A stretch of DNA of 64,000 nucleotides from a virus. Lineage: Duplodnaviria > Caudoviricetes. The stretch spans positions 160,001 through 224,000 of the IMG/VR virus record IMGVR_UViG_3300037067_027616; one strand, given 5' to 3'. Below are positions 23,691 to 52,798 of the stretch, piece after piece (the stretch's first letter is position 1; every line of letters starts with the position of its first letter). Both the position numbers and the translations under genes were made by a program. The notes under the pieces are model-generated. The model had not been told where the DNA came from and did no database searches. It saw only the letters and a program-made list of their open reading frames with translations.

Positions 23691-23813
23691 TCAGCCCTTC
23701 AGAAGTCCCCCGCCGTAACTATCCCACGTGAGGTGCAAATACGACAGTCGGCATGCGGCTATCGCTTGCACGTTTGTGGATGATCCGGTTAGTAAGGACT
23801 CTCTGCGTTTCAT
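23691..23813 (-). CDS. Leader peptide 1 (MKRRESLLTGSSTNVQAIAACRLSYLHLTWDSYGGGLLKG)
   Basis: AGGAG SD; lies between promoter and terminator; 3' end holds the antiterminator strand; contains the exact codon for all 20 downstream tRNAs. Confidence 0.88.
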   Translation of the reverse strand: MKRRESLLTGSSTNVQAIAACRLSYLHLTWDSYGGGLLKG

Positions 23814-35860: not shown

Positions 35861-35937
35861 TGGTGCGCCCGGTGGGATTTTAACCCACGACCATCGGTTT
35901 TAGAGACCGTCGGCTCTACACGCTGAGCTACGGGCGC
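35861..35937 (-). tRNA. Amber suppressor tRNA (CTA anticodon)
   Basis: GCGCCCG acceptor, GCTC/GAGC D stem, CGGT-CTCTAAA-ACCG, T loop TTAAAAT, CCA. Confidence 0.82.
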
Positions 35938-43714: not shown

Positions 43715-44302
43715 CTACCCTACGAAAAAGTAGTCCACTGTCTTATCCCCGTACACCGACTCCGCCGCCTTCTCCTTTGAATCGTAAGAAGCCAGGCGGT
43801 ACATGTTTGACATTACTCTCCATTGGTCATCTTCATATACGAGAAGTATTGCGTGTCCTCGCCTTTTACCGTCCTTGCGTCCGTGGCACACAGCCATGAC
43901 ACATTTTTTATTTCCCCGCAGGACTTCCCACGACAAGAGTGCAAAATCCTCACAATCTCCACCCCATTTTGCTGCCGTAAGCCAAGGCTTGCTGTAGCAA
44001 TTAATTTTGTCTTTCCGCCACACAAAACCATATTCTGAATACCAAGCCTTCAACGTGATCGTATCATTTACTTTCTTGCGGGCCTCTTTTATCAAGTGCA
44101 TGCCCCACTGTTTCCGTTTGGCATTGAGCAGGCCCTCGATACCTCCCGACAGAAAGATGTAGGGTTTTGCCGTCAACGGACCGTACCACTTGATAAACCA
44201 TCTCCACAACCTCACGACTTGACCTCTCCTGTTTCGATCGGTATAATAAAAAGATCCGGCATGGTATCTACCTTTTCGTACTGCTGATGACGAGCAAGCC
44301 AC
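43715..44302 (-). CDS. Transglutaminase-like cysteine protease domain protein (true start probably downstream)
   Basis: GDCEDFA...GHAIL. Confidence 0.6.
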   Translation of the reverse strand: MACSSSAVRKGRYHAGSFYYTDRNRRGQVVRLWRWFIKWYGPLTAKPYIFLSGGIEGLLNAKRKQWGMHLIKEARKKVNDTITLKAWYSEYGFVWRKDKINCYSKPWLTAAKWGGDCEDFALLSWEVLRGNKKCVMAVCHGRKDGKRRGHAILLVYEDDQWRVMSNMYRLASYDSKEKAAESVYGDKTVDYFFVG

Positions 44303-44541
44303 TTTACCACCACGTGAACCTCATGCTCCCCGAGTTCTGCCTGCCAATAGGAGTTGTCACCGTCTGTAAGCCTTTGTGACCCGTTTCTCTCCGCTATCTC
44401 CTTGAGGAACCCCAACATGTCCATCATCCAGGAGTGCCTTGAAGAATTCGTGTCTGCGATGTTTGGTACCCGGATGAGGTTCCCTTCAAACCAATACCTC
44501 AATGTTTCCTTTTTTCTTGCCACTGTGCACCCCTTTTCTTT

Positions 44542-44619
44542 TGGTACCCGCGGTGCGACTTGAACGCACGATCTTTGCCTTCGGAGGGCAATGTTTTGAT
44601 CCAACTAAACTACGCGGGC
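44542..44619 (-). tRNA. tRNA-Arg(CCG)
   Basis: Loop CT-CCG-AA, CCA. Confidence 0.92.
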
Positions 44620-44810
44620 ATTGTTCGCTCATCCCGTATTTTCTTTTCAACCAACCCCTTTTTCCCATTTCAGCACACAATCCTTGGAACATTTTTCGGT
44701 CGTCTCCGGAAAGACCAAACTCGCGGCCTTTAGTAAACAGTCCCCGGAAGTCATCAAACAAATATTCATCAGACATCTTCGACAAGTCTTCCACAATGTC
44801 CTTCAATCTA

Positions 44811-44887
44811 TGGTGGGCCCGGCCCGGCTTGAACGGGCGACCTCCTGCATGTCGAGCAGGCACTCTAGCCAACTGAGCTACGAGCCC
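44811..44887 (-). tRNA. tRNA-Val(GAC)
   Basis: Loop TC-GAC-AT (C33), CCA. Confidence 0.9.
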
Positions 44888-44893
44888 ACGTAT

Positions 44894-44970
44894 TGGTACC
44901 CCCTCCCGGAGTCGAACCGGGTACCTACTGATTAAGAGTCAGTTGCTCTAGCCAAATGAGCTAAGGAGGC
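44894..44970 (-). tRNA. tRNA-Lys(CTT)
   Basis: Loop CT-CTT-AA, CCA. Confidence 0.93.
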
Positions 44971-45379
44971 ATGAATTATCCGTTGAACTCCTCTTCGTTC
45001 TCTTTTTCTTTGGTTTCGTCCACACTATCCACGAGTACCTTCTCGATGCTGTCACAAAATTTACGTATGCTCGATACCAACAATTCCCTTTGCGCCTTGT
45101 TGACCTTTTTCATGAATTCACCGAAAATGGCGTTGAACTCCTCATCTGCAAACATTTTCTTTTCCATCTCGGAAGCAATAGTTCCGAGAGCATTGATTTG
45201 CAACTCACGCCATTTCCAAACCATGTCGCGCATAAACTTTTTAGGATCTTCTGTCAGCACGGCCATCGTCTTCAGCACAGACATCGCCACGAAGAACGTG
45301 AAGTCGTTTCTGAGTTCCCTCAATGCCTCTCCACTCACGTTCTCCTCGGTACCCATTCATCGTACCTTTCGTTTTGATT

Positions 45380-45457
45380 TGGTAGGCGCGAGAGGACTTG
45401 AACCTCCGACCCTCGGTTTGTAGGACCGATGCTCTGTACCAACTGAGCTACGCGCCT
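45380..45457 (-). tRNA. tRNA-Val(TAC)
   Basis: Loop CC-TAC-AA (C33), CCA. Confidence 0.9.
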
Positions 45458-45834
45458 TCAATATCTTCTCCTTCTTGAGTTTTCCGCCGGCCATTTCAGA
45501 CCAATACTCTACATCGAGGTCGGGTTTCTCCGCCTTGATGTCTTCAGCTATCTTGCGTCCCATCTCGTACAGTTTCTTCTCGTACTTCTTGAGGACACAG
45601 TAATTGGGTCTTCCCGTCGCCACGTCATCGTAGTAGCGCTCAAATTTATTCAAATCATTTGTGATGCTCTTTGACAACCCAATATCTTCTGGGTCGATCA
45701 TAAAACCCTTGTCCAGGCTCCACAAGCACGAAGAACTGAAGTCAGGCATGACCTTCACTCCCGGGACTTTGTACCGTTTTGACTTTGATTCCTTTGACAT
45801 ATGTTCAAGCCTTTTATTAACAGGTTAGACTTTC

Positions 45835-45909
45835 TGGTACCCCCGGTTGGATTCGAACCAACGACCCCCATCTTAAAAGGATGGTATTCTACCTCTGAAT
45901 TACGGAGGC
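45835..45909 (-). tRNA. tRNA-Lys(TTT)
   Basis: Loop CT-TTT-AA, CCA. Confidence 0.93.
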
Positions 45910-45910
45910 A

Positions 45911-45953
45911 CAAAACAAGAAGGCCCCCGGTGACTTTGTCATCCGGGGGCCTT
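45911..45953 (-). terminator. Attenuator terminator of tRNA block 4
   Basis: AAGGCCCCCGG-ATGAC-aaa-GTCA-CCGGGGGCCTT followed by CTTGTTTT. Confidence 0.85.
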
Positions 45954-45980
45954 AAACCTATTGTGAAGAGATTGAATAGG

Positions 45981-46046
45981 CTACACGACCCCCGATGGCG
46001 TCACCCGGCGCTTGGATACGACTCGTTTTGCCTTCAGTGAGAACAT
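45981..46046 (-). CDS. Leader peptide 4 (MFSLKAKRVVSKRRVTPSGVV)
   Basis: AAG/AAA/GTC/GTA/CGG/CGC/CGA cluster; contains the antiterminator strand. Confidence 0.85.
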   Translation of the reverse strand: MFSLKAKRVVSKRRVTPSGVV

Positions 46047-46071
46047 GGTGCCTTTTTCCCTTCAAAAACAT

Positions 46072-46100
46072 AATATACCACAACCTGACAGGTTTGTCAA
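46072..46100 (-). promoter_or_regulatory. Promoter of tRNA block 4
   Basis: TTGACA-17-TATATT with extended TG. Confidence 0.88.
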
Positions 46101-46103
46101 TGG

Positions 46104-46667
46104 TCAATTCGTGAAATTTACAGGTTGCTTACCGGATCTTTTCAAACAAGCATCGTATAACTTTGCTGCCTGGAGTTCGTTAGCAAAAGTTCCTACTCTC
46201 TTATTGCGATATCTCACCACCCAAGGTTTGTTGATACTTCCGCTATAACTCACTCCGATGTATTTCGATATTGGAGTACCGACGTTTGAATATTGTTCGG
46301 CACGCACTTTAGTGCCCGGACTCCTTGAGAGATCTATGCCGTTCTGTGATCTGTTCCTTATCTTTTTGAAAACCTGAACAGGCTGCTGTGGCATACAGAG
46401 CGGTCTGGCAACAATGTTTTTTCCTACCCTTGCAGGATCGGCCGTCAGCTGGTCACTGACTTCTTCGAGGGGAGAATCTATGAGGGTTATATCGTGTGAG
46501 GTGTCCCCGAAGTACTTTGAGGTACATTCATCGATAGCTTTTTCCAAATAATCAATACTCCCCGCGAATTGGGCCAACTTGAATACTTCATTTACAAGCT
46601 CAAGGATCCTTTGGTTAATCGCAGGTTTCATCAATTCGAGGACGTCATCTGTAACGGTCTTTGTCAT
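46104..46667 (-). CDS. Protein with a C-terminal AP2-like DNA-binding domain
   Basis: SKYIGVS...W.......VGTF..E..AAK.YD. Confidence 0.65.
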   Translation of the reverse strand: MTKTVTDDVLELMKPAINQRILELVNEVFKLAQFAGSIDYLEKAIDECTSKYFGDTSHDITLIDSPLEEVSDQLTADPARVGKNIVARPLCMPQQPVQVFKKIRNRSQNGIDLSRSPGTKVRAEQYSNVGTPISKYIGVSYSGSINKPWVVRYRNKRVGTFANELQAAKLYDACLKRSGKQPVNFTN

Positions 46668-46708
46668 ATTGCTCTCCTTTTATTGTTTTTGATTTCAGAA
46701 ACGGTTTT

Positions 46709-47464
46709 CTATTCCTTTTTATCTTCAGGTATTAAGTCTTCCTTAATAAGCGCCCGGTGCCTGACCTGGCTGTCCAAATGCCACTTTCCTTCCCTGTTCG
46801 ACATGCGTAAAACTTCACAGTTGTAGGGGTTTCTGACGGTTTCATAGTATTCGACAGACCAATGAAACCAGCGCATGAGGAAAAGTCTCATCGTGAGTCC
46901 GTGCGTGACGATGAGGCAAACCCTGGGAAAATCCGGCTTATCGAAATCTCTCCAGAGTGTGTCCATGAAGGTGGACAAGCGGTCATAGACATCAGCCCCT
47001 GATTCTCCATCGGGGATCCTGTAGAAGAACGTGCCAAACTTGTCACGTTCTTCCTCGATCTTTTTTGAAACATCGGCGTCCTTGTAGTTTCCCCAATCCT
47101 GCTCGCGCAACCGCGGGTCGAACGTTTCGCTTGCGATGTGGACATAGTATGGTTTATGGAGTAAATCTTTTATTCTTCCTGTGTGCGTGTGAATACCATC
47201 GAACAAAAGCCTCCAGACGGTATGCCACGTTTGTTTGGTCCGCTCATATGGCGAGCAATATGCGGCGATTTCCGGCGGGTCGATGCCTTTGGGGAATTCG
47301 TGAACGAGATCGTCTTTGATGTAAATGCCTGCGGTAACAGCCTGCTGACGACCGAAATCGGTGAGAGGTATCTTCCAATCAGGGACGGTCTTCAAAAGAT
47401 CCCAATTCACGTTCGCTTCAGACTGACCGTGCCTTATGAGATATATGAATTTTGGAGGAGCCAT
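46709..47464 (-). CDS. Histidine phosphatase (phosphoglycerate mutase family)
   Basis: LIRHGQS, SPY.RT.QT, LREQDWG, GES..DV..R, VTHG. Confidence 0.9.
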   Translation of the reverse strand: MAPPKFIYLIRHGQSEANVNWDLLKTVPDWKIPLTDFGRQQAVTAGIYIKDDLVHEFPKGIDPPEIAAYCSPYERTKQTWHTVWRLLFDGIHTHTGRIKDLLHKPYYVHIASETFDPRLREQDWGNYKDADVSKKIEEERDKFGTFFYRIPDGESGADVYDRLSTFMDTLWRDFDKPDFPRVCLIVTHGLTMRLFLMRWFHWSVEYYETVRNPYNCEVLRMSNREGKWHLDSQVRHRALIKEDLIPEDKKE

Positions 47465-47482
47465 AGTGCCTCTTTTTTTATT

Positions 47483-47557
47483 TGGTATCCTCACCGGGAA
47501 TCGGACCCGGATCTAGAGTTTAGGAAACTCTTGTTCTGTCCGTTGAACTATGAGGAC
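47483..47557 (-). tRNA. tRNA-Arg(CCT)
   Basis: Loop TT-CCT-AA; atypical T loop TCCGATT; CCA. Confidence 0.88.
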
Positions 47558-47615
47558 ATAGTTGAATATACCATTTCGTAACCCTGATTTACAGCACTTT
47601 TCGAAGACATAAATG

Positions 47616-47691
47616 TGGTGCGGCAGCCGAGACTCGAACTCGGGGCATTCAGCTTGGGAAGCTGACATTCTACCAACTGAATTACTGCCGC
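47616..47691 (-). tRNA. tRNA-Gly(CCC)
   Basis: Loop TT-CCC-AA, CCA. Confidence 0.92.
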
Positions 47692-47696
47692 ATATT

Positions 47697-47771
47697 TGGA
47701 GCGCCAGCCGAGGCTCGAACTCGGGACCCCTACCATGGCAAGGTAGTATTCTACCACTGAACTACTGGCGC
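47697..47771 (-). tRNA. tRNA-Gly(GCC)
   Basis: Loop TT-GCC-AT, U73, CCA. Confidence 0.92.
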
Positions 47772-48189
47772 TTTCTGTTTTCATCAATGATTTTGTGCTC
47801 CCGCTCCCACCCGTCCACATATGTCTGTAACTGTTTTTCCACCCAATCGTGAACTTTCTGGGAAAAATCCACTCCATATTCTTTTTTAGCCTCTTCAAAT
47901 CCGACCCGCCACGCTTCCTTCTCAATGTCCGGTGTGTAGTATTCAACAGAAGATGCAAAGTCATCTGGCATGAGAGCGTGACCCAACTCATGGAAAAATG
48001 ACGCCACCTTCAACTCATCATCCTCATAAATCCCTAAATAAATTTTGGGGTGGCAGATGTAACTTTTGTTTTCGTATTCTTCAAGACCATTGGCACTGCA
48101 GTAATCGTCTCCAGGTACGACTTGAACAACCTCATATCCGTATTTGGCGGCTACTTTTTTGAAATCGGATAGTGCCCACGAAATTAAAA

Positions 48190-48265
48190 TGGAGCGGGAG
48201 ACGAGGCTCGAACTCGCGACCTTCAGATTGGAAATCTGAGACTCTACCAACTGAGTTACTCCCGC
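48190..48265 (-). tRNA. tRNA-Gly(TCC)
   Basis: Loop TT-TCC-AA, U73, CCA. Confidence 0.93.
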
Positions 48266-48278
48266 GTATTTTCATATC

Positions 48279-48356
48279 TGGTACGCCTGGCGAGACTCGA
48301 ACTCGCGACCCTCAGATTAGAAGTCTGATGCTCTGATCCAGCTGAGCTACAGGCGC
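48279..48356 (-). tRNA. tRNA-Arg(TCT)
   Basis: Loop CT-TCT-AA, CCA. Confidence 0.93.
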
Positions 48357-48361
48357 TCATG

Positions 48362-48868
48362 TTATCTCAACCCATACAAGTACAAAAGTGCCGCATACCC
48401 CGAGGGAAGTAACTGAAGAGGTTTGTCGACCTCCTTCGAGTACTTCACGGCCATCTCTAAAAAATACCGCGCGTGGAGCATCGCCTCTATCCATCTTCGC
48501 GGGTCTTTTTTAGGATCCAAGCCATCCTCCATAATTTCTTTGAACACGGAACATCGATTTTTCCAACCGTACTTGTATAGGCCTTCCAACTCCTTCAGCA
48601 CCTTGCGTGTCACAACCACCGCGGATCCAACTTTATAGGAACCGTGGTACAGCCTGTAAACTGTGTCCTCAATTTCCCAATGGCTGTTGATGTTTTCGAG
48701 AAGTTCCTCAAGTACCTTTTGTTTTTTATGGAGGTTCTTGATGAGAACGCGTTGCCCTTGGTCGTTGCTGCGCTTCTCCTTCATGGCAGCCGCGCTACTG
48801 TTGCGCAGACCTTTCTCACAGAATTTTTTGAAATCCTCGATGCTAATCTTTTTTGCTTTGTCATTCAT
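48362..48868 (-). CDS. Hypothetical protein
   Basis: YR.YH.S.KV...EA.LHARYFLEMAVKY...LPSG.AALLYLY.LR. Confidence 0.6.
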   Translation of the reverse strand: MNDKAKKISIEDFKKFCEKGLRNSSAAAMKEKRSNDQGQRVLIKNLHKKQKVLEELLENINSHWEIEDTVYRLYHGSYKVGSAVVVTRKVLKELEGLYKYGWKNRCSVFKEIMEDGLDPKKDPRRWIEAMLHARYFLEMAVKYSKEVDKPLQLLPSGYAALLYLYGLR

Positions 48869-49153
48869 GGAATTTTTGTTTCTCCGTGAGATTCGGAATC
48901 CATGTGCGGATCCTCGCAGAGTACAACGAATTCTCCAGTACCTTCGAGAGCCTCAAGTTCCAAATCATCGAAGTCATTCTCTTGGAAGTTCGTCCCGTCC
49001 CACCAACGGCACATGTACGTTATCCCGTGTTTTGTCACCAGTACTCCGCACACTCTGCCGTCCTGTTTTCCATCGACGATGTGTACCCTTTGGCCCGGGC
49101 TGAACTTTGATTTTACAACCATGTGGCTCCCCTGTGGTGTGTGGTGTATGGTG

Positions 49154-49227
49154 TGGGCCCACCAAGAGTCGAACTTGGGACAGGCGGATTATGAGACCGC
49201 TACTCTAACCAACTGAGTTATGGGCCC
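49154..49227 (-). tRNA. tRNA-Ile2(CAT), lysidine-type
   Basis: GGGCCCA acceptor, loop CT-CAT-AA; leader 5 carries three ATA codons; no encoded CCA. Confidence 0.8.
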
Positions 49228-49248
49228 GTTGATTCCTGCTCATACACC

Positions 49249-49277
49249 AATATACCATTCAGCGGGACACGTGTAAA
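49249..49277 (-). promoter_or_regulatory. Possible internal promoter in tRNA block 5
   Basis: TTTACA-17-TATATT with extended TG. Confidence 0.55.
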
Positions 49278-49303
49278 CTTGATACATTTGTGAAACAGGT
49301 ATG

Positions 49304-49377
49304 TAGCCCGGACGAGATTCGAACTCGTGATTTTCACAGTGAAAGTGTGATGGATTAGACCGCTACCCTACCGGGCC
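49304..49377 (-). tRNA. tRNA-Glu(TTC)
   Basis: Loop CT-TTC-AC; no encoded CCA. Confidence 0.9.
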
Positions 49378-49382
49378 ATACT

Positions 49383-50063
49383 TTATGCCAAATCACTTAT
49401 AAAGCCTTGATTATACCGCTTATATGATGTTCGTCTTCCGTTGGAGTGGTTCACGACCATGTCATCTCGCACCCGTATAGTACGGACCTTGTCACCCCGC
49501 ATACCACTTCCGACCTGCCCTCGCCTGGCATCATTCACGTTTCCGGTCACTTTTGACGTGAGCCTGTGGTGGATCCTCTGGCGCAACACGCTCATCGCTT
49601 GTTCCTTATTTTGGTGCTGGCTACGCTCCGATTCGCATCTCACAATAATGCCCGTCGGGATGTGCTTCACCTGTACGGCAGAATCCGTCACGTTTCGGTG
49701 TTGTCCGCCTTTTCCGGAACCGCGCGCTATTGAGATCTCTATGTCACTACACGGTATGTCCACCTTTACCCCGGGGATCTCTTCGAGGACGGCCACTGTG
49801 ATGGTGGAAGTCTGTACACGGCCGCGCTTCTCTGTCGGAGGTATCCTTTGCCACCTGTGACCGCCCGGCTCGTTCTCAAACGTTCTTGCGGCGTCTTCTC
49901 CCGATATTTTGATGCAGACGTAACCTGGTCGCATCTCCAGGACACGCATCTAATATCCCTTCAAAACGCACACCTTTCCATAAATCCTGAACTGATCTTC
50001 AACTAAAAGCTTTGCATCGTCTCCGCCTTCGGCGGCTCTGATTTCCACTATGATTGATTGCAT
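49383..50063 (-). CDS. Short RF1-like peptide chain release factor with in-frame TAG at codon 38
   Basis: GGAGG SD, MQSIIVEIRAAEGGDDAK...KGY*MRVLE..., E.G.HR.QRIPPTE..GRVQTS, GGQ, SQ..NK. Confidence 0.85.
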
Positions 50064-50199
50064 GGTACCCTCCGTTATAAAACGCCCTGGTGTTCCCTAC
50101 GTCCGTCCTGATAGCCCGGGCATCGGGGCATAGGAACGGTAACCTTTCGGTGAGACTTGTTCGCCGAAAGAAAACTCGGTTGCACCTTTTGGCTTATAT

Positions 50200-50277
50200 T
50201 GGTAGCCCGGATGAGGTTCGAACTCATGAGTCTCCGCCTTGAGAGGGCGGTGTCCTAGCCAATTAGACGACCGGGCC
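50200..50277 (-). tRNA. tRNA-Glu(CTC)
   Basis: Loop CT-CTC-AA, CCA. Confidence 0.93.
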
Positions 50278-50324
50278 TTACATTCAAAAGTGCTTTTGTC
50301 GTCAGCAGACTGTCAAAGATCAAC

Positions 50325-50359
50325 GAAAAAACCCCGCCAGGCTTGGCCTGACGGGGTTT
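50325..50359 (-). terminator. Attenuator terminator of tRNA block 5
   Basis: AAACCCCGTCAGGC-caa-GCCTGGCGGGG followed by TTTTTT. Confidence 0.88.
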
Positions 50360-50381
50360 GTGTATAAGTACAATACTCCCG

Positions 50382-50441
50382 TCAGGTGGGTATTCTTCCC
50401 TCCCTACCTTCTTCAGCTATTCTGACGGTTGCGTTTATCAT
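50382..50441 (-). CDS. Leader peptide 5 (MINATVRIAEEGREGRIPT), near-leaderless
   Basis: ATG about 10 nt from the -10 box; ATA/AGA/AGG/GAA/GAG/GGA/GGT cluster; antiterminator overlaps the TGA. Confidence 0.85.
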   Translation of the reverse strand: MINATVRIAEEGREGRIPT

Positions 50442-50450
50442 AGGATATTA

Positions 50451-50479
50451 AATATAACACAAAAAAACGGTGTTGTCAA
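50451..50479 (-). promoter_or_regulatory. Promoter of tRNA block 5
   Basis: TTGACA-17-TATATT with extended TG. Confidence 0.88.
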
Positions 50480-50949
50480 CCCTGTTCTTTTTTAGCGAGT
50501 CTCATGTGTTCTATCGAACTGGTCATGGTGTCTTTACCGCCCATCTCCGTTAGAAGGTACAAAAGAAGATTTTTCAAACGGAATTCGACATCCTCTTTCA
50601 TCTCGCGGACACCTTTTTTATACTTCTCCACAGACATCTTCAACTTTGGTACTTTGGCGGCCACGCTGTCGAGTATCCTCTCGAATTGGTCGAGAGCATT
50701 TTTAATGCTGTCTATTGGAACTTGGGCCTTGTCCCTATGTTCCATAATGACATCGTCTAAAGAAGGGGTATTCAAATCCCGGGGACTTGGGATAACATTG
50801 TACGGATGCTTTGCAGGATACACGGTGTTTGGAGAGTAAGCAGATTCGATGGTGTTAGATATCACATCGACATCCTCTGCCTCCTTGATCATTCCTAAAA
50901 ACTCGAGTCGTTCAGCAATGTCATCAAATGTCGCGATTACTTCTTTCAT
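50476..50949 (-). CDS. Repeat-motif protein
   Basis: FDDIAERLEFLGMIKEAEDVDVISNTIE. Confidence 0.7.
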   Translation of the reverse strand: MKEVIATFDDIAERLEFLGMIKEAEDVDVISNTIESAYSPNTVYPAKHPYNVIPSPRDLNTPSLDDVIMEHRDKAQVPIDSIKNALDQFERILDSVAAKVPKLKMSVEKYKKGVREMKEDVEFRLKNLLLYLLTEMGGKDTMTSSIEHMRLAKKEQG

Positions 50950-50956
50950 ACACCCC

Positions 50957-51862
50957 TCATTTTAGATACGTGTAATCTACCTGCTTGGACAGTTGTTCGC
51001 CTATCTCGATGTATTGGCTCATGTATTTGACCCCGTCCATGATGTCCATTTTAGGGTCAAGGTCGTATTTTTCAAGTCTTTGAAAGGTAAAATCTTGATA
51101 TTGCCCGGCTATTCCGGACAATATTTCTTCGTTAGTTCTGTCACATTGTCTACGTGCAAGTCCACCGTCCATGGGACTCATGAAATAGTAGAGTTGCCGG
51201 AGAGCATTGTAACTAGATGCCTCTTTATAGGACATGGAGAACGGGGACTCCCCGCATCCGAGGGACAACATGTGTACCTGTTCGTTTTTGAGCCAATCCA
51301 AGCGGCAGGCCTCTACGTAGGCCTCTACGGTCGGGCTGCTCATGTTACCGGTTCCTCCGTCAAGCCACACAGCGTTTCCTGCTTTGTCTTTGATGGATCC
51401 AAAATAATAAGGCGCGGCGTAGCTCCTGGACAAGGCTTCAAGTACAGTAAGTTCACCGTCTTTTTCTTCCCAAGACTTGAAGAAGTGTGTCCTTCCGTCC
51501 ACCATATTCACGCTGGTGCAGACAAAACGTGTTTCGCAATTCTTCATCCTGAACTCTCCGCCGACGTGATAACGTATGAGTTCGTCTAACGGCGTGCGGC
51601 TGTATTTATTTCCGATGAACGGTATGTGCGTTTGTGGAGTGAACACTTTAGGTATGGCCGACAGCAACAACGGGTAGAACGTTTCCATTCGGAGGGCGCC
51701 TGTGGATAGCACTCCGCCGATTATTGCACCCACGGAAGATCCCCAAACAAGGTCGAAAACCTCGTGTATTTCCTTGCCGAGGACGCGAACGATGTTGGAG
51801 AGTATCGTGGCAGCAATGGGACCCTTGGCGCCGCCGCCGTCTATTACCAAAATGCGCTTCAT
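50957..51862 (-). CDS. Patatin-like phospholipase
   Basis: DGGGAKG, GSSVG, AAPYYF, DGG. Confidence 0.9.
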   Translation of the reverse strand: MKRILVIDGGGAKGPIAATILSNIVRVLGKEIHEVFDLVWGSSVGAIIGGVLSTGALRMETFYPLLLSAIPKVFTPQTHIPFIGNKYSRTPLDELIRYHVGGEFRMKNCETRFVCTSVNMVDGRTHFFKSWEEKDGELTVLEALSRSYAAPYYFGSIKDKAGNAVWLDGGTGNMSSPTVEAYVEACRLDWLKNEQVHMLSLGCGESPFSMSYKEASSYNALRQLYYFMSPMDGGLARRQCDRTNEEILSGIAGQYQDFTFQRLEKYDLDPKMDIMDGVKYMSQYIEIGEQLSKQVDYTYLK

Positions 51863-51898
51863 ACCGAGTTAACGGTATGAAGAGAGCATTATGGTTTG

Positions 51899-52798
51899 TT
51901 AGGACGGGTCAAGACCGTTGATGTCGCTTCTTTCGATCGACAACGGGTTTTTTCTTTTGTATCCAGAAGTCTCGTGCCTTTTAACGACCTTATGATCTTC
52001 ATAGGATGCACGGAGTTTCAAAAATTCATTGTAAGACTCCGGTCTTCCATCGAACTTCAAAAAATCGTCCCAGGCGAACATGTCTTCGTCTTTGCAGAGC
52101 CATATTTTGAGGATGCGGTCGACTTCATCATAGGATTGTGCCCCGAACTGCTCCAAATCGGAGGATGTGATTCCGAGCCCGTCTGTAGGAACAGCGTGGA
52201 CACACTGCTCAAGTGCGGTTGCGGCATCCTCGGCGTGTTCGGTGCGTAGTGATTGCACGAGATACTTCGAAAGATCGTAAACCTCCGTCTTCCACAGATA
52301 TTGTATCATGCCATAGTCGCCGACGTCACCATGAAGCGTCCAGAACCCCAACTCATATTCGGAAAGATTGTCGGTAGACAGAACCAATCCTTTGTGTTTG
52401 CTTGCAAGGTCAAACAGTCTTATCATGCGGAGGCGCGCTTTCAAATTTCCCCGGCGAACTTTTCGCTCATGTGTGAGGTCACCAGGTTCATCGTCTTCCA
52501 TGAGTATTTTTACCATCGATGCAAAGTCGTTGCCAAAGTCGGCTTCTTTGAAGCTTGTGCAAAAGGCCTTTCCTACGGCCGCCGCGCGTTGTATTTCTTC
52601 ACTTTTATTCGTGGCTATGGTGATGCTTCTGCCGATGAGTTCCATACCATGATAGTCGCATACAGGTTTGGCCAATGCTGCGCACAAGGCACTGTCCAAT
52701 CCCCCGGACACACCGAGAACCAAAGAATTCAAATGGTTGGATGAAACATATTCCGACAGCGATTTCCGTAGACTCTCAACAACTTTAAGATGATCCAT
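51899..52798 (-). CDS. nadE: NH3-dependent NAD+ synthetase
   Basis: LGVSGGLDSA, GNLKARLRM, TDN.SE..LGF.TL.GD, KTEV, PTDGL. Confidence 0.92.
   Translation of the reverse strand: MDHLKVVESLRKSLSEYVSSNHLNSLVLGVSGGLDSALCAALAKPVCDYHGMELIGRSITIATNKSEEIQRAAAVGKAFCTSFKEADFGNDFASMVKILMEDDEPGDLTHERKVRRGNLKARLRMIRLFDLASKHKGLVLSTDNLSEYELGFWTLHGDVGDYGMIQYLWKTEVYDLSKYLVQSLRTEHAEDAATALEQCVHAVPTDGLGITSSDLEQFGAQSYDEVDRILKIWLCKDEDMFAWDDFLKFDGRPESYNEFLKLRASYEDHKVVKRHETSGYKRKNPLSIERSDINGLDPS

Follow-up and report, generated by a model that had tools for sequence, protein, structure and literature searches.

A probable codon-sensing transcription attenuator in front of tRNA genes and a release-factor gene in a 467-kb phage genome

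Layout of the locus

Exploring a single phage contig of 466,729 bp (~467 kb; 49% G+C) that carries 49 tRNA genes and a tmRNA gene, we analyzed bases 160001-224000, a stretch of 64,000 nucleotides referred to below as the window. The window holds 47 tRNA genes, all on the minus strand and located between 13.9 and 50.3 kb, and the element described here, attenuator 5, heads the last group. Its features and those of the operon that it leads are as follows, the six aligned sequences being the window and the five relatives introduced below.

50474..50479 (-): -35 box TTGACA, overlapping the TGA stop of an upstream 157-aa ORF (50476-50949); invariant in the six aligned sequences
50451..50459 (-): extended -10 box, TGT + TATATT; TATATT invariant in the six-sequence alignment
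50382..50441 (-): leader ORF, 19 codons + TGA; ATG 9 nt past the -10 box
50391..50423 (-): putative sensor, codons 7-17 of the leader; 10/11 read by tRNAs of its own operon; synonymous-site conservation
50422..50428 (-): region 1 (CCGTCAG, codons 5-7), putative anti-antiterminator strand; pairs with region 2 in the minimum-energy fold
50378..50386 (-): region 2 (CCTGACGGG), putative 5' antiterminator strand including the TGA stop; nearly invariant
50329..50359 (-): intrinsic terminator; region 3 = 50356-50346, region 4 = 50342-50332, T6 = 50331-50326
50305..50319 (-): conserved block TCTTTGACAGTCTGC in the interval between terminator and first tRNA; nearly invariant (14/15 columns) in six sequences
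50200..50277 (-): tRNA-Glu(CTC), first gene of the operon; tRNA call
49383..50063 (-): truncated RF1-like release-factor gene, 226 codons; in-frame TAG at 49952-49950
49303..49377 (-): tRNA-Glu(TTC); tRNA call
49249..49277 (-): internal promoter TTTACA-17-TATATT; hexamers conserved in seven sequences
49153..49227 (-): tRNA with anticodon CAT, probably Ile2; would read ATA after lysidine modification
47483..48356 (-): distal tRNA group, five tRNAs
48356-48279 (-): tRNA-Arg(TCT)
48265-48190 (-): tRNA-Gly(TCC)
48166-47765 (-): 134-codon reading frame among the distal tRNAs, no known family
47771-47697 (-): tRNA-Gly(GCC)
47691-47616 (-): tRNA-Gly(CCC)
47557-47483 (-): tRNA-Arg(CCT)

The leader TGA is followed by 22 nt, the terminator hairpin, its T6 tract and a further 48 nt before tRNA-Glu(CTC). 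No strong terminator was found between 50330 and the next attenuator at 45953, so a read-through transcript would span the whole 4.3-kb operon, comprising eight tRNAs, the RF1-like gene and four other protein-coding frames (one histidine-phosphatase-family gene and three of no known family). Crude genome-wide open-frame totals gave no sign of global TAG recoding, reading TAG as sense gaining no more than reading TAA as sense. Two candidates in the terminator region were rejected: a TTGACA in the block after the terminator has no -10 box downstream in any of the six sequences, and a TTG-start ORF following GGGAG and overlapping the terminator has a spacing of only 2 nt. The sequence TCTTTGACA also sits just 5' of tRNA-Asn (window 39794) and of the tmRNA gene.

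Relatives were collected through the release-factor gene (40 IMG/VR loci and 80 metagenome loci). At seven of these loci (L041-L046 and L051) the release-factor protein is 72-91% identical to that of the window, and six of the seven carry tRNA genes in the order Glu(CTC), release factor, Glu(TTC), CAT, Arg(TCT), Gly, as far as the contigs reach. Five metagenomic relatives, L041-L045, include the upstream promoter and leader and were aligned with the window (release-factor identity 75-84%). All six sequences keep the promoter hexamers, the ATG, the frame, the 19 codons, the TGA inside CCTGACGGG and the terminator, whereas sequence varies freely in the promoter spacer and in the loop that separates regions 2 and 3. 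Searching more broadly, we found that blastn against 50,697 phage records matched only the tRNAs, that an exact-pattern scan of IMG/VR with the sensor and region 2 gave no match, and that no tRNAs lie within 20 kb of the release-factor gene in LR745206 or LR745208, two published huge-phage records.

The promoter reads TTGACA-17-TATATT with a TG upstream of the -10 box (50479-50451, minus strand). We counted 23 instances of the exact pattern TTGACA-N17-TATATT in the 466,729-bp genome and none in 20 shuffles, which indicates that it is the promoter consensus used by this phage. The leader begins with the ATG at 50441, runs for 19 codons (MINATVRIAEEGREGRIPT) and ends with the TGA at 50384-50382. 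The first-pass annotation had called this leader near-leaderless, and for the window genome this is correct: the ATG lies 9 nt past the -10 box and has no Shine-Dalgarno sequence, an element present at the other promoters of the genome that were read. In four of the five relatives (L041, L042, L043 and L045) a GGAG is found 7-9 bases before the ATG, within a 10-nt stretch; exactly this stretch is missing from the window and from L044, which share TATCCTATG and the 9-nt distance from -10 box to ATG. Because four of five relatives have GGAG in the stretch missing here, we take the near-leaderless start to be the derived state. The promoter spacers of the window and L044 have completely diverged, and retention of the near-leaderless geometry despite this divergence argues for maintenance rather than decay.

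Positions 6-9 nt past the -10 box contain no purine and position 10 is an A, which makes a transcription start at or just before the A of the ATG plausible, as judged from the consensus promoter. Translation of the leader in the window genome would then begin close to the 5' end of the transcript. Termination-reinitiation from the upstream 157-aa ORF, whose stop lies 32 nt before the leader ATG, is a second possible route of translation. That ORF has no relative in IMG/VR, and a search of 5.8 billion proteins returned only the ORF itself.

Leader codons and RNA helices

Reading the minus strand confirmed the codons assigned in the first pass to positions 7-17 of the leader, AGA ATA GCT GAA GAA GGT AGG GAG GGA AGA ATA, together with the claim that 10 of the 11 are read by tRNAs encoded downstream (wobble allowed); only GCT falls outside the set. 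The matching tRNAs are Glu CTC and TTC, the CAT tRNA, Arg TCT and CCT, and Gly TCC and GCC. All three Ile codons of the leader are ATA, again as reported before. The codon GGG is missing from the leader; of all sense tRNAs in the window, Gly(CCC) alone is not represented by a codon in the leader of its operon (wobble allowed). The earlier statement that Gly(CCC) stood alone in this respect therefore holds among sense tRNAs; the CTA suppressor tRNA likewise has no codon in its own leader (wobble allowed).

The eight downstream tRNAs correspond to nine codons (AGA, AGG, ATA, GAA, GAG and GGN), which make up ~18% of codons in the long open frames of the genome. At a background of 0.18 the binomial P for 10 of 11 is 3e-7. 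Across the whole genome, 10/11 is reached by 5 of 933,394 eleven-codon windows in six frames, one of them being the leader and the other four overlapping within a single purine repeat elsewhere. Because the sensor is rich in purines, part of its codon match is independent of frame, and an RNA-level role of the purine tract GAAGAAGGTAGGGAGGGAAG is possible. Each tRNA is sampled by only one to three leader codons, which we count against the attenuator reading, since in classical attenuation theory few codons per tRNA give low sensitivity.

Among the six aligned sequences the stretch GAA GAA GGT AGG GAG GGA of the sensor is nearly constant. In pairwise comparison, codons for the same amino acid are identical in 43 of 49 cases in the sensor vs 44-58% in the adjacent release-factor gene. 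The only synonymous changes in the sensor are GCT/GCC, at the codon outside the set, and AGA/AGG, both of which are inside it. Nonsynonymous changes remain within the set in two cases, GAA (Glu) becoming AGA (Arg) in L044 and ATA (Ile) becoming GAA (Glu) in L043 and L045, while three changes in L044 and one in L043/L045 leave the set. Arginine is encoded by AGA or AGG and never by CGN, codon 8 is ATA in 6/6, and GGT and GGA are fixed. Together, this pattern fits selection on codons rather than on the peptide.

The terminator is a hairpin of 14 pairs followed by T6 (-25.3 kcal/mol), and both it and the promoter are called by simple scans. It had been proposed that the antiterminator overlaps the leader stop codon, and this was confirmed: CCTGACGGG (region 2, 50386-50378) spans the TGA and is a perfect 9-nt complement of CCCGTCAGG in the 5' arm of the terminator. 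Region 1, CCGTCAG, can in turn pair with CTGACGG within region 2 (seven pairs). The 2:3 antiterminator hairpin, with nine perfect pairs, has a predicted energy of -21.0 kcal/mol, and the fold up to region 2, including the 1:2 helix, of -15.1 kcal/mol. The minimum-energy fold of the free RNA consists of the 1:2 helix and the terminator (z-score -3.4; 0/200 shuffles fold as well). Over the six sequences, pairing is preserved in 86% (1:2), 93% (2:3) and 93% (3:4) of cells vs 14-63% in slid controls. Two compensatory pairs lie at the base of the terminator and the 1:2 helix shows no covariation; covariation is weak as the helices are nearly invariant, which is expected because the three strands constrain one another. 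In L043 and L045, regions 1 and 2 could pair in a shifted register. A permissive Rfam cmscan of 44000-52000 (4227 families) returned only tRNAs and chance hits, none of them at 50325-50479, and the Rfam Trp, His, Leu and Thr leader families and the T-box gave no covariance-model match at the element.

To relate ribosome position to these helices, the ribosome was modelled with a footprint that extends 15 nt upstream and 11 nt downstream of the first base of its A-site codon. With the A site on codons 2-15, region 2 is predicted to be free to pair with region 3 before region 4 is made; with the A site on codons 16-20 (stop included), the ribosome covers region 2, and no hairpin but the terminator can form. 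Sensor codons 7-15 thus lie within the modelled permissive zone. Codons 16-17 (AGA ATA) fall at its edge, where a stall should favour termination, and this is a small misfit.

The tRNA with anticodon CAT bears on how the ATA codons are to be understood. Its G1-C72 is paired, indicating that it is not an initiator, and it has C4-G69 and C5-G68 like E. coli ileX, where metT has U4-A69 and A5-U68; the C4-G69 and C5-G68 pairs matter for lysidine synthesis. Overall identity is 52/74 to ileX and 48/75 to metT, and blastn of the tRNA against E. coli genomes gave no match. One relative's CAT tRNA has U5-A68. Internal ATG codons are present in the leader of the operon to which the other two CAT tRNAs of the window belong. 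ATA is also read by a tRNA-Ile(TAT) encoded in another operon, and no TilS gene was found in the phage. The tRNA at 49153-49227 is thus likely to be Ile2, as the first-pass annotation held, citing the leader's ATA codons in support; the ileX-like acceptor pairs make that assignment plausible, while the support from the leader, which had been termed independent, is partly circular.

Downstream of tRNA-Glu(TTC), the internal promoter suggested earlier at 49277-49249 is supported by phylogenetic footprinting, its hexamers being conserved in seven sequences in which spacer and flanks vary. This promoter could give basal, unattenuated expression of six of the eight tRNAs, which then need not depend on attenuator 5. 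For tRNA-Glu(CTC), the release-factor gene and tRNA-Glu(TTC) no other promoter match was found.

The other tRNA operons of the window and other phages

The window contains five perfect promoters, at 50479, 46100, 39991, 28712 and 23864, and all lead into the same arrangement: a short ORF, then a strong U-tailed hairpin, then a group of tRNA genes. We scored the codons of every leader against every tRNA block in a 5x5 comparison.

Leader A (23864): own block 24/39; other blocks 2-8
Leader B (28712): own block 16/22; other blocks 0-6
Leader C (39991): own block 11/25; other blocks 2-4
Leader D (46100): own block 11/20; other blocks 1-8
Leader E (50479, attenuator 5): own block 11/18; other blocks 0-7

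All five leaders score highest on their own operon. An exact Watson-Crick codon is present in the own leader for 20/20, 6/6, 6/7, 5/6 and 6/8 tRNAs, and the operon with the CGN-reading tRNAs has CGN codons in its leader. Every unit contains, at or close to the leader stop, a segment complementary to the 5' arm of its terminator. When 127 terminator-like hairpins of the genome were ranked by upstream complementarity to the 5' arm, the five tRNA terminators took ranks 2, 3, 7, 8 and 9, attenuator 5 being 8th, with energies of -20 to -25 kcal/mol vs a median of -12.3 (five among the top nine of 127; hypergeometric P ~5e-7 by our own arithmetic). A further hairpin with a high rank, near window 14508, was considered as a sixth attenuator and rejected, as it ends a longer coding region and has no short leader ORF.

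The window and other phage sequences were scanned for hairpins of at least -13 kcal/mol in strength with a T tract, located at most 250 nt upstream of a tRNA, and the frame that ends close to the hairpin was scored against every tRNA block. The own block came first at 8 of 17 sites in the first 40 loci and the window, and at 9 of 22 scorable sites in 96 non-redundant sequences (95 loci and the window; six frameless sites left out). The nine comprise four attenuators of the window, three sites of L014, one of L097 and one of L056. Attenuator 5 itself ranked third in this wider scan, behind blocks with a nearly identical tRNA set.

Two elements outside the window resemble its attenuators. In L021 (31% G+C), a promoter, a leader with AGA GAG GAG AGA GAA and a terminator precede tRNA-Glu(TTC) and tRNA-Arg(TCT), and on this sequence pattern we regard the element as a functional analogue of attenuator 5. 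The element of L097 (36% G+C) looks like a homologue of the window's Asn/Pro/Gln attenuator: its block holds only Asn and Gln tRNAs, and its leader keeps the Gln/Asn run and is without the Pro codon run. Searching 784 kb with a covariance model of these E-type elements (the window and its five relatives) revealed no additional E-type homologue; the weak same-strand hits were L097 (E 3e-4), L021 (0.03) and the attenuators of the window at 28.5 kb and 39.8 kb (0.1).

The cultured Caulobacter phage phiCbK (JX100813), inspected by eye and with no statistics, also appears to share the leader-attenuator design. In the annotation of its GenBank record, rho-independent terminators stand immediately ahead of tRNA blocks. 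Before the Pro, Lys, Leu and Ser tRNAs lies gp083, an ORF of 45 codons with many Ser, Pro, Lys and Leu codons, and a near-leaderless ORF, 7 nt past a promoter-like -10 box, has Gln, Phe, Val, Ile and Gly codons ahead of the corresponding tRNAs. The phage is unrelated to that of the window and differs in its sequences and tRNA groupings, but the terminators and codon-matched ORFs before the tRNAs are alike.

Proposed mechanism, alternatives and known systems

The 5x5 codon match, the terminator ranks, the synteny in five relatives, the synonymous conservation and the analogues elsewhere all support the first-pass reading of the element as an attenuator. We consider it probable that attenuator 5 is a working ribosome-mediated, codon-sensing transcription attenuator of the trp/ilv type. 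The sequences show its anatomy, statistics and conservation; that the leader is translated in the window genome, that ribosome and polymerase are coupled, and which way and to what the element responds, we infer. In the proposed mechanism, transcription would start a few nucleotides from the ATG and a ribosome would follow the advancing RNA polymerase, translating the 19-codon leader. Fast decoding of codons 7-15 (AGA, ATA, GAA, GGT, AGG, GAG and GGA) would bring the ribosome to the TGA, where it would cover region 2; the 3:4 terminator would form and the transcript would stop at ~115 nt. If a charged tRNA is scarce, the ribosome would stall at the slow codon, hiding region 1 and freeing region 2, which would pair with region 3, block the terminator and allow the tRNAs to be transcribed. 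With no ribosome on the leader, regions 1 and 2 would pair and the terminator would form. Slow decoding being the signal and tRNA the product that relieves it, the device would work as a homeostat, supplying nothing beyond what the infected cell is short of.

An alternative is that the element is a decayed attenuator which has lost its Shine-Dalgarno sequence, so that the leader is untranslated, the 1:2 and 3:4 helices always form, and the hairpin merely ends transcripts from the upstream genes and from its own promoter, the tRNAs being supplied by the internal promoter and by leakage. The 10-nt gap does remove the GGAG that four relatives have, the free RNA folds into the terminated form at minimum energy, a conserved internal promoter exists, and in L044, which shares the lack of a Shine-Dalgarno, three sensor codons fall outside the set. 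Yet the window keeps the ATG, the frame, the stop and 10/11 sensor codons, it shares with L044 the 9-nt ATG spacing in the face of diverged spacers, and the first three genes of the operon, from tRNA-Glu(CTC) to tRNA-Glu(TTC), match no promoter other than that of the leader. Leaderless leader ORFs, moreover, exist in the phiCbK tRNA region and in mycobacteria (10.1101/834739). On balance we judge decay unlikely. Quite unlikely, in our estimate, is a working ribosome-dependent attenuator that answers to another signal, such as general translation capacity or starvation for Arg, Ile, Glu or Gly. A device of this kind cannot tell a missing tRNA from an uncharged one, and multivalent leaders are textbook knowledge (ilvGMEDA, thr). 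However, conservation is at the level of the codon and not of the amino acid (AGA or AGG and never CGN; ATA fixed at codon 8), the CGN codons sit in the leader of the operon with CGN-reading tRNAs, and a lack of amino acids is not relieved by tRNAs, the products of the genes regulated here.

Very improbable is a reading in which the promoter-terminator unit yields a functional peptide of 19 aa or a small non-coding RNA, and in which the codon match is a by-product of purine-richness. A discrete RNA of ~115 nt would result from the unit, the sequence of the purine tract is conserved, and one other purine repeat of the genome reaches an equal codon score by composition alone; however, the same logic is found at four other leaders whose codon sets are not purine-rich and in other phages, the overlap of terminator and antiterminator has a high rank among the terminators of the genome, amino-acid changes are tolerated as long as the codon remains within the set, and Rfam gave no matching family.

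The purpose of phage tRNA genes has been debated for fifty years, the proposals including codon compensation, host shut-off and escape from anticodon nucleases; to our knowledge their regulation has hardly been asked about. If attenuator 5 works as a codon-sensing attenuator, it would be direct sequence-level evidence that tRNA supply limits the phage and that tRNA synthesis is demand-driven. AGA, AGG, ATA and GGA, which this operon serves, are the classic rare-codon set of E. coli. Beyond this locus, we lean slightly towards the view that codon-inventory attenuators are old and widespread in the tRNA arrays of large phages; with them, a phage would measure host decoding codon by codon and transcribe only the tRNA sets that are lacking. 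If so, the cause of the lack could be a poor match to the host, host shut-off or defence nucleases that cleave tRNAs. Such leaders could also aid annotation, by identifying the tRNAs of one transcription unit and by hinting at the reading of ambiguous CAT anticodons.

Full-text literature searching turned up no description of tRNA genes, phage or bacterial, under the control of leader-peptide attenuation. We know of no earlier case of such regulation, nor of a feedback loop in which the product acts on the sensor with no enzyme between. Known leader attenuators are either multivalent, such as ilvGMEDA (Ile/Leu/Val) and thr (Thr/Ile), or respond to a single amino acid, as in trp, his, leu and pheA. 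Attenuator 5 resembles these enterobacterial amino-acid leaders in having a promoter, a short ORF with regulatory codons, helices 1:2, 2:3 and 3:4, and a terminator before the first structural gene, and in the placing of the stop, such that a terminating ribosome masks region 2. In contrast to them, it would regulate tRNAs and a release-factor gene rather than biosynthetic enzymes, its sensor would act at the level of codon and isoacceptor (seven tRNAs, four amino acids), its product would act directly on the sensor, the window copy is without a Shine-Dalgarno, and no Rfam leader matches it. In E. coli, pheST, with its pheM leader, provides a case of attenuation of an aminoacyl-tRNA synthetase, one amino acid being sensed via runs of Phe codons. 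It shares with attenuator 5 the leader-peptide attenuation of a gene of the translation apparatus, but it concerns one amino acid and a synthetase and is not from a phage. The theory of leader-peptide attenuation is treated in PMC1183508.

T-box riboswitches, named in PMC2879506, likewise sense tRNA status and choose between terminator and antiterminator. Unlike the proposed mechanism, the T-box binds uncharged tRNA through a specifier codon and the T-box motif, without translation, and attenuator 5 has no such motif.

A PNAS 2021 paper on the VapC4 toxin and small ORFs reportedly describes how cleavage of one tRNA is sensed through leaderless ORFs; this paper is cited in PMC10264068. Leaderless poly-Cys short ORFs of mycobacteria are Cys-responsive attenuators according to 10.1101/834739. 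They differ from attenuator 5 in that they use one codon type and govern host Cys and stress genes rather than tRNAs, and resemble it in that the speed at which a leaderless leader is translated controls the genes downstream.

Recoding position in the release-factor gene

The operon headed by attenuator 5 includes a release-factor gene:
49383-50063, minus strand: release-factor (RF) gene; RF1-like protein lacking domain 1, with an in-frame TAG at 49952-49950

Comparison with the RF1 model aligned positions 113-323 (E 3e-63), and the PPT motif is present in the protein. The in-frame TAG is codon 38 of the gene; five close relatives (loci given as L041-L046) carry TGA instead of TAG at this codon, and the distant homologues examined, among them L050, L001, L014 and L010, read CTT TGA C at the same position, the part upstream of it being unreadable in the same frame. 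CTT TGA C matches the motif at which prfB undergoes +1 frameshifting. The RF gene thus has a recoding site whose position is fixed and which is solved in three differing ways, TAG, TGA or CTT TGA C.

Conserved block and codon content of attenuator 5

Between the terminator of attenuator 5 and the first tRNA lies a block that is nearly invariant among six relatives:
50305-50319, minus strand: conserved block TCTTTGACA(GTCTGC)

The 9-mer TCTTTGACA of this block recurs directly 5' of tRNA-Asn (window 39794, minus strand), after attenuator C, and again 3 nt ahead of the tmRNA gene (genome 422961, plus strand). When a -10 box was sought downstream of the block, none was found to follow. The block may be a processing signal.

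Searching the genome for codons of the Glu/Arg/Gly/Ile set, we found only one locus besides the leader of attenuator 5 with 10 of 11 matches, a purine tandem repeat (GAA GGA AGA ...) outside the window at about 279,294-279,330 of the genome, plus strand. The matching frame contains TAA codons and is therefore probably non-coding.

Leaders and tRNAs of the other operons

Three further features lie on the minus strand:
23691-23813, minus strand: leader of the largest operon, 40 codons
26277-26369, minus strand: one of the CAT tRNAs, 93 nt; its extra arm is long and U1-U72 is mismatched
45981-46046, minus strand: leader of the Lys/Val/Arg operon, stop codon TAG; terminator at 45953-45920

The 40-codon leader holds an exact Watson-Crick codon for all 20 tRNAs between 23466 and 13901, mostly with one occurrence each. 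This CAT tRNA looks like an initiator except for the extra arm, a feature unusual for a Met tRNA. A CTA suppressor tRNA is also encoded in the window (35861-35937).

Past its TAG, the frame of the Lys/Val/Arg leader runs to a TGA within the terminator hairpin. Were the suppressor tRNA to read this TAG, the ribosome would enter the terminator and open it; suppression is a possible second input to this attenuator.

Leader units in other phages

Unrelated large phages, with G+C contents from 31% to 51%, have units of a codon-matched leader plus terminator ahead of their tRNA blocks, at these loci:
L097: 2855-2987
L014: 6604-6758, 9203-9324 and about 2420-2562
L010: 6604-6708 and 7533-7679
L019: 7587-7672
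L021: 2772-2916

The L097 unit appears homologous to the Asn/Pro/Gln attenuator of the window, but its leader has no run of Pro codons and its block no Pro tRNAs. For phage phiCbK (L126, JX100813 47000-53000), three rho-independent terminators are marked in the GenBank record directly ahead of tRNA blocks, and gp083, annotated there as a 45-aa hypothetical protein, resembles a leader peptide serving the tRNA block behind it.
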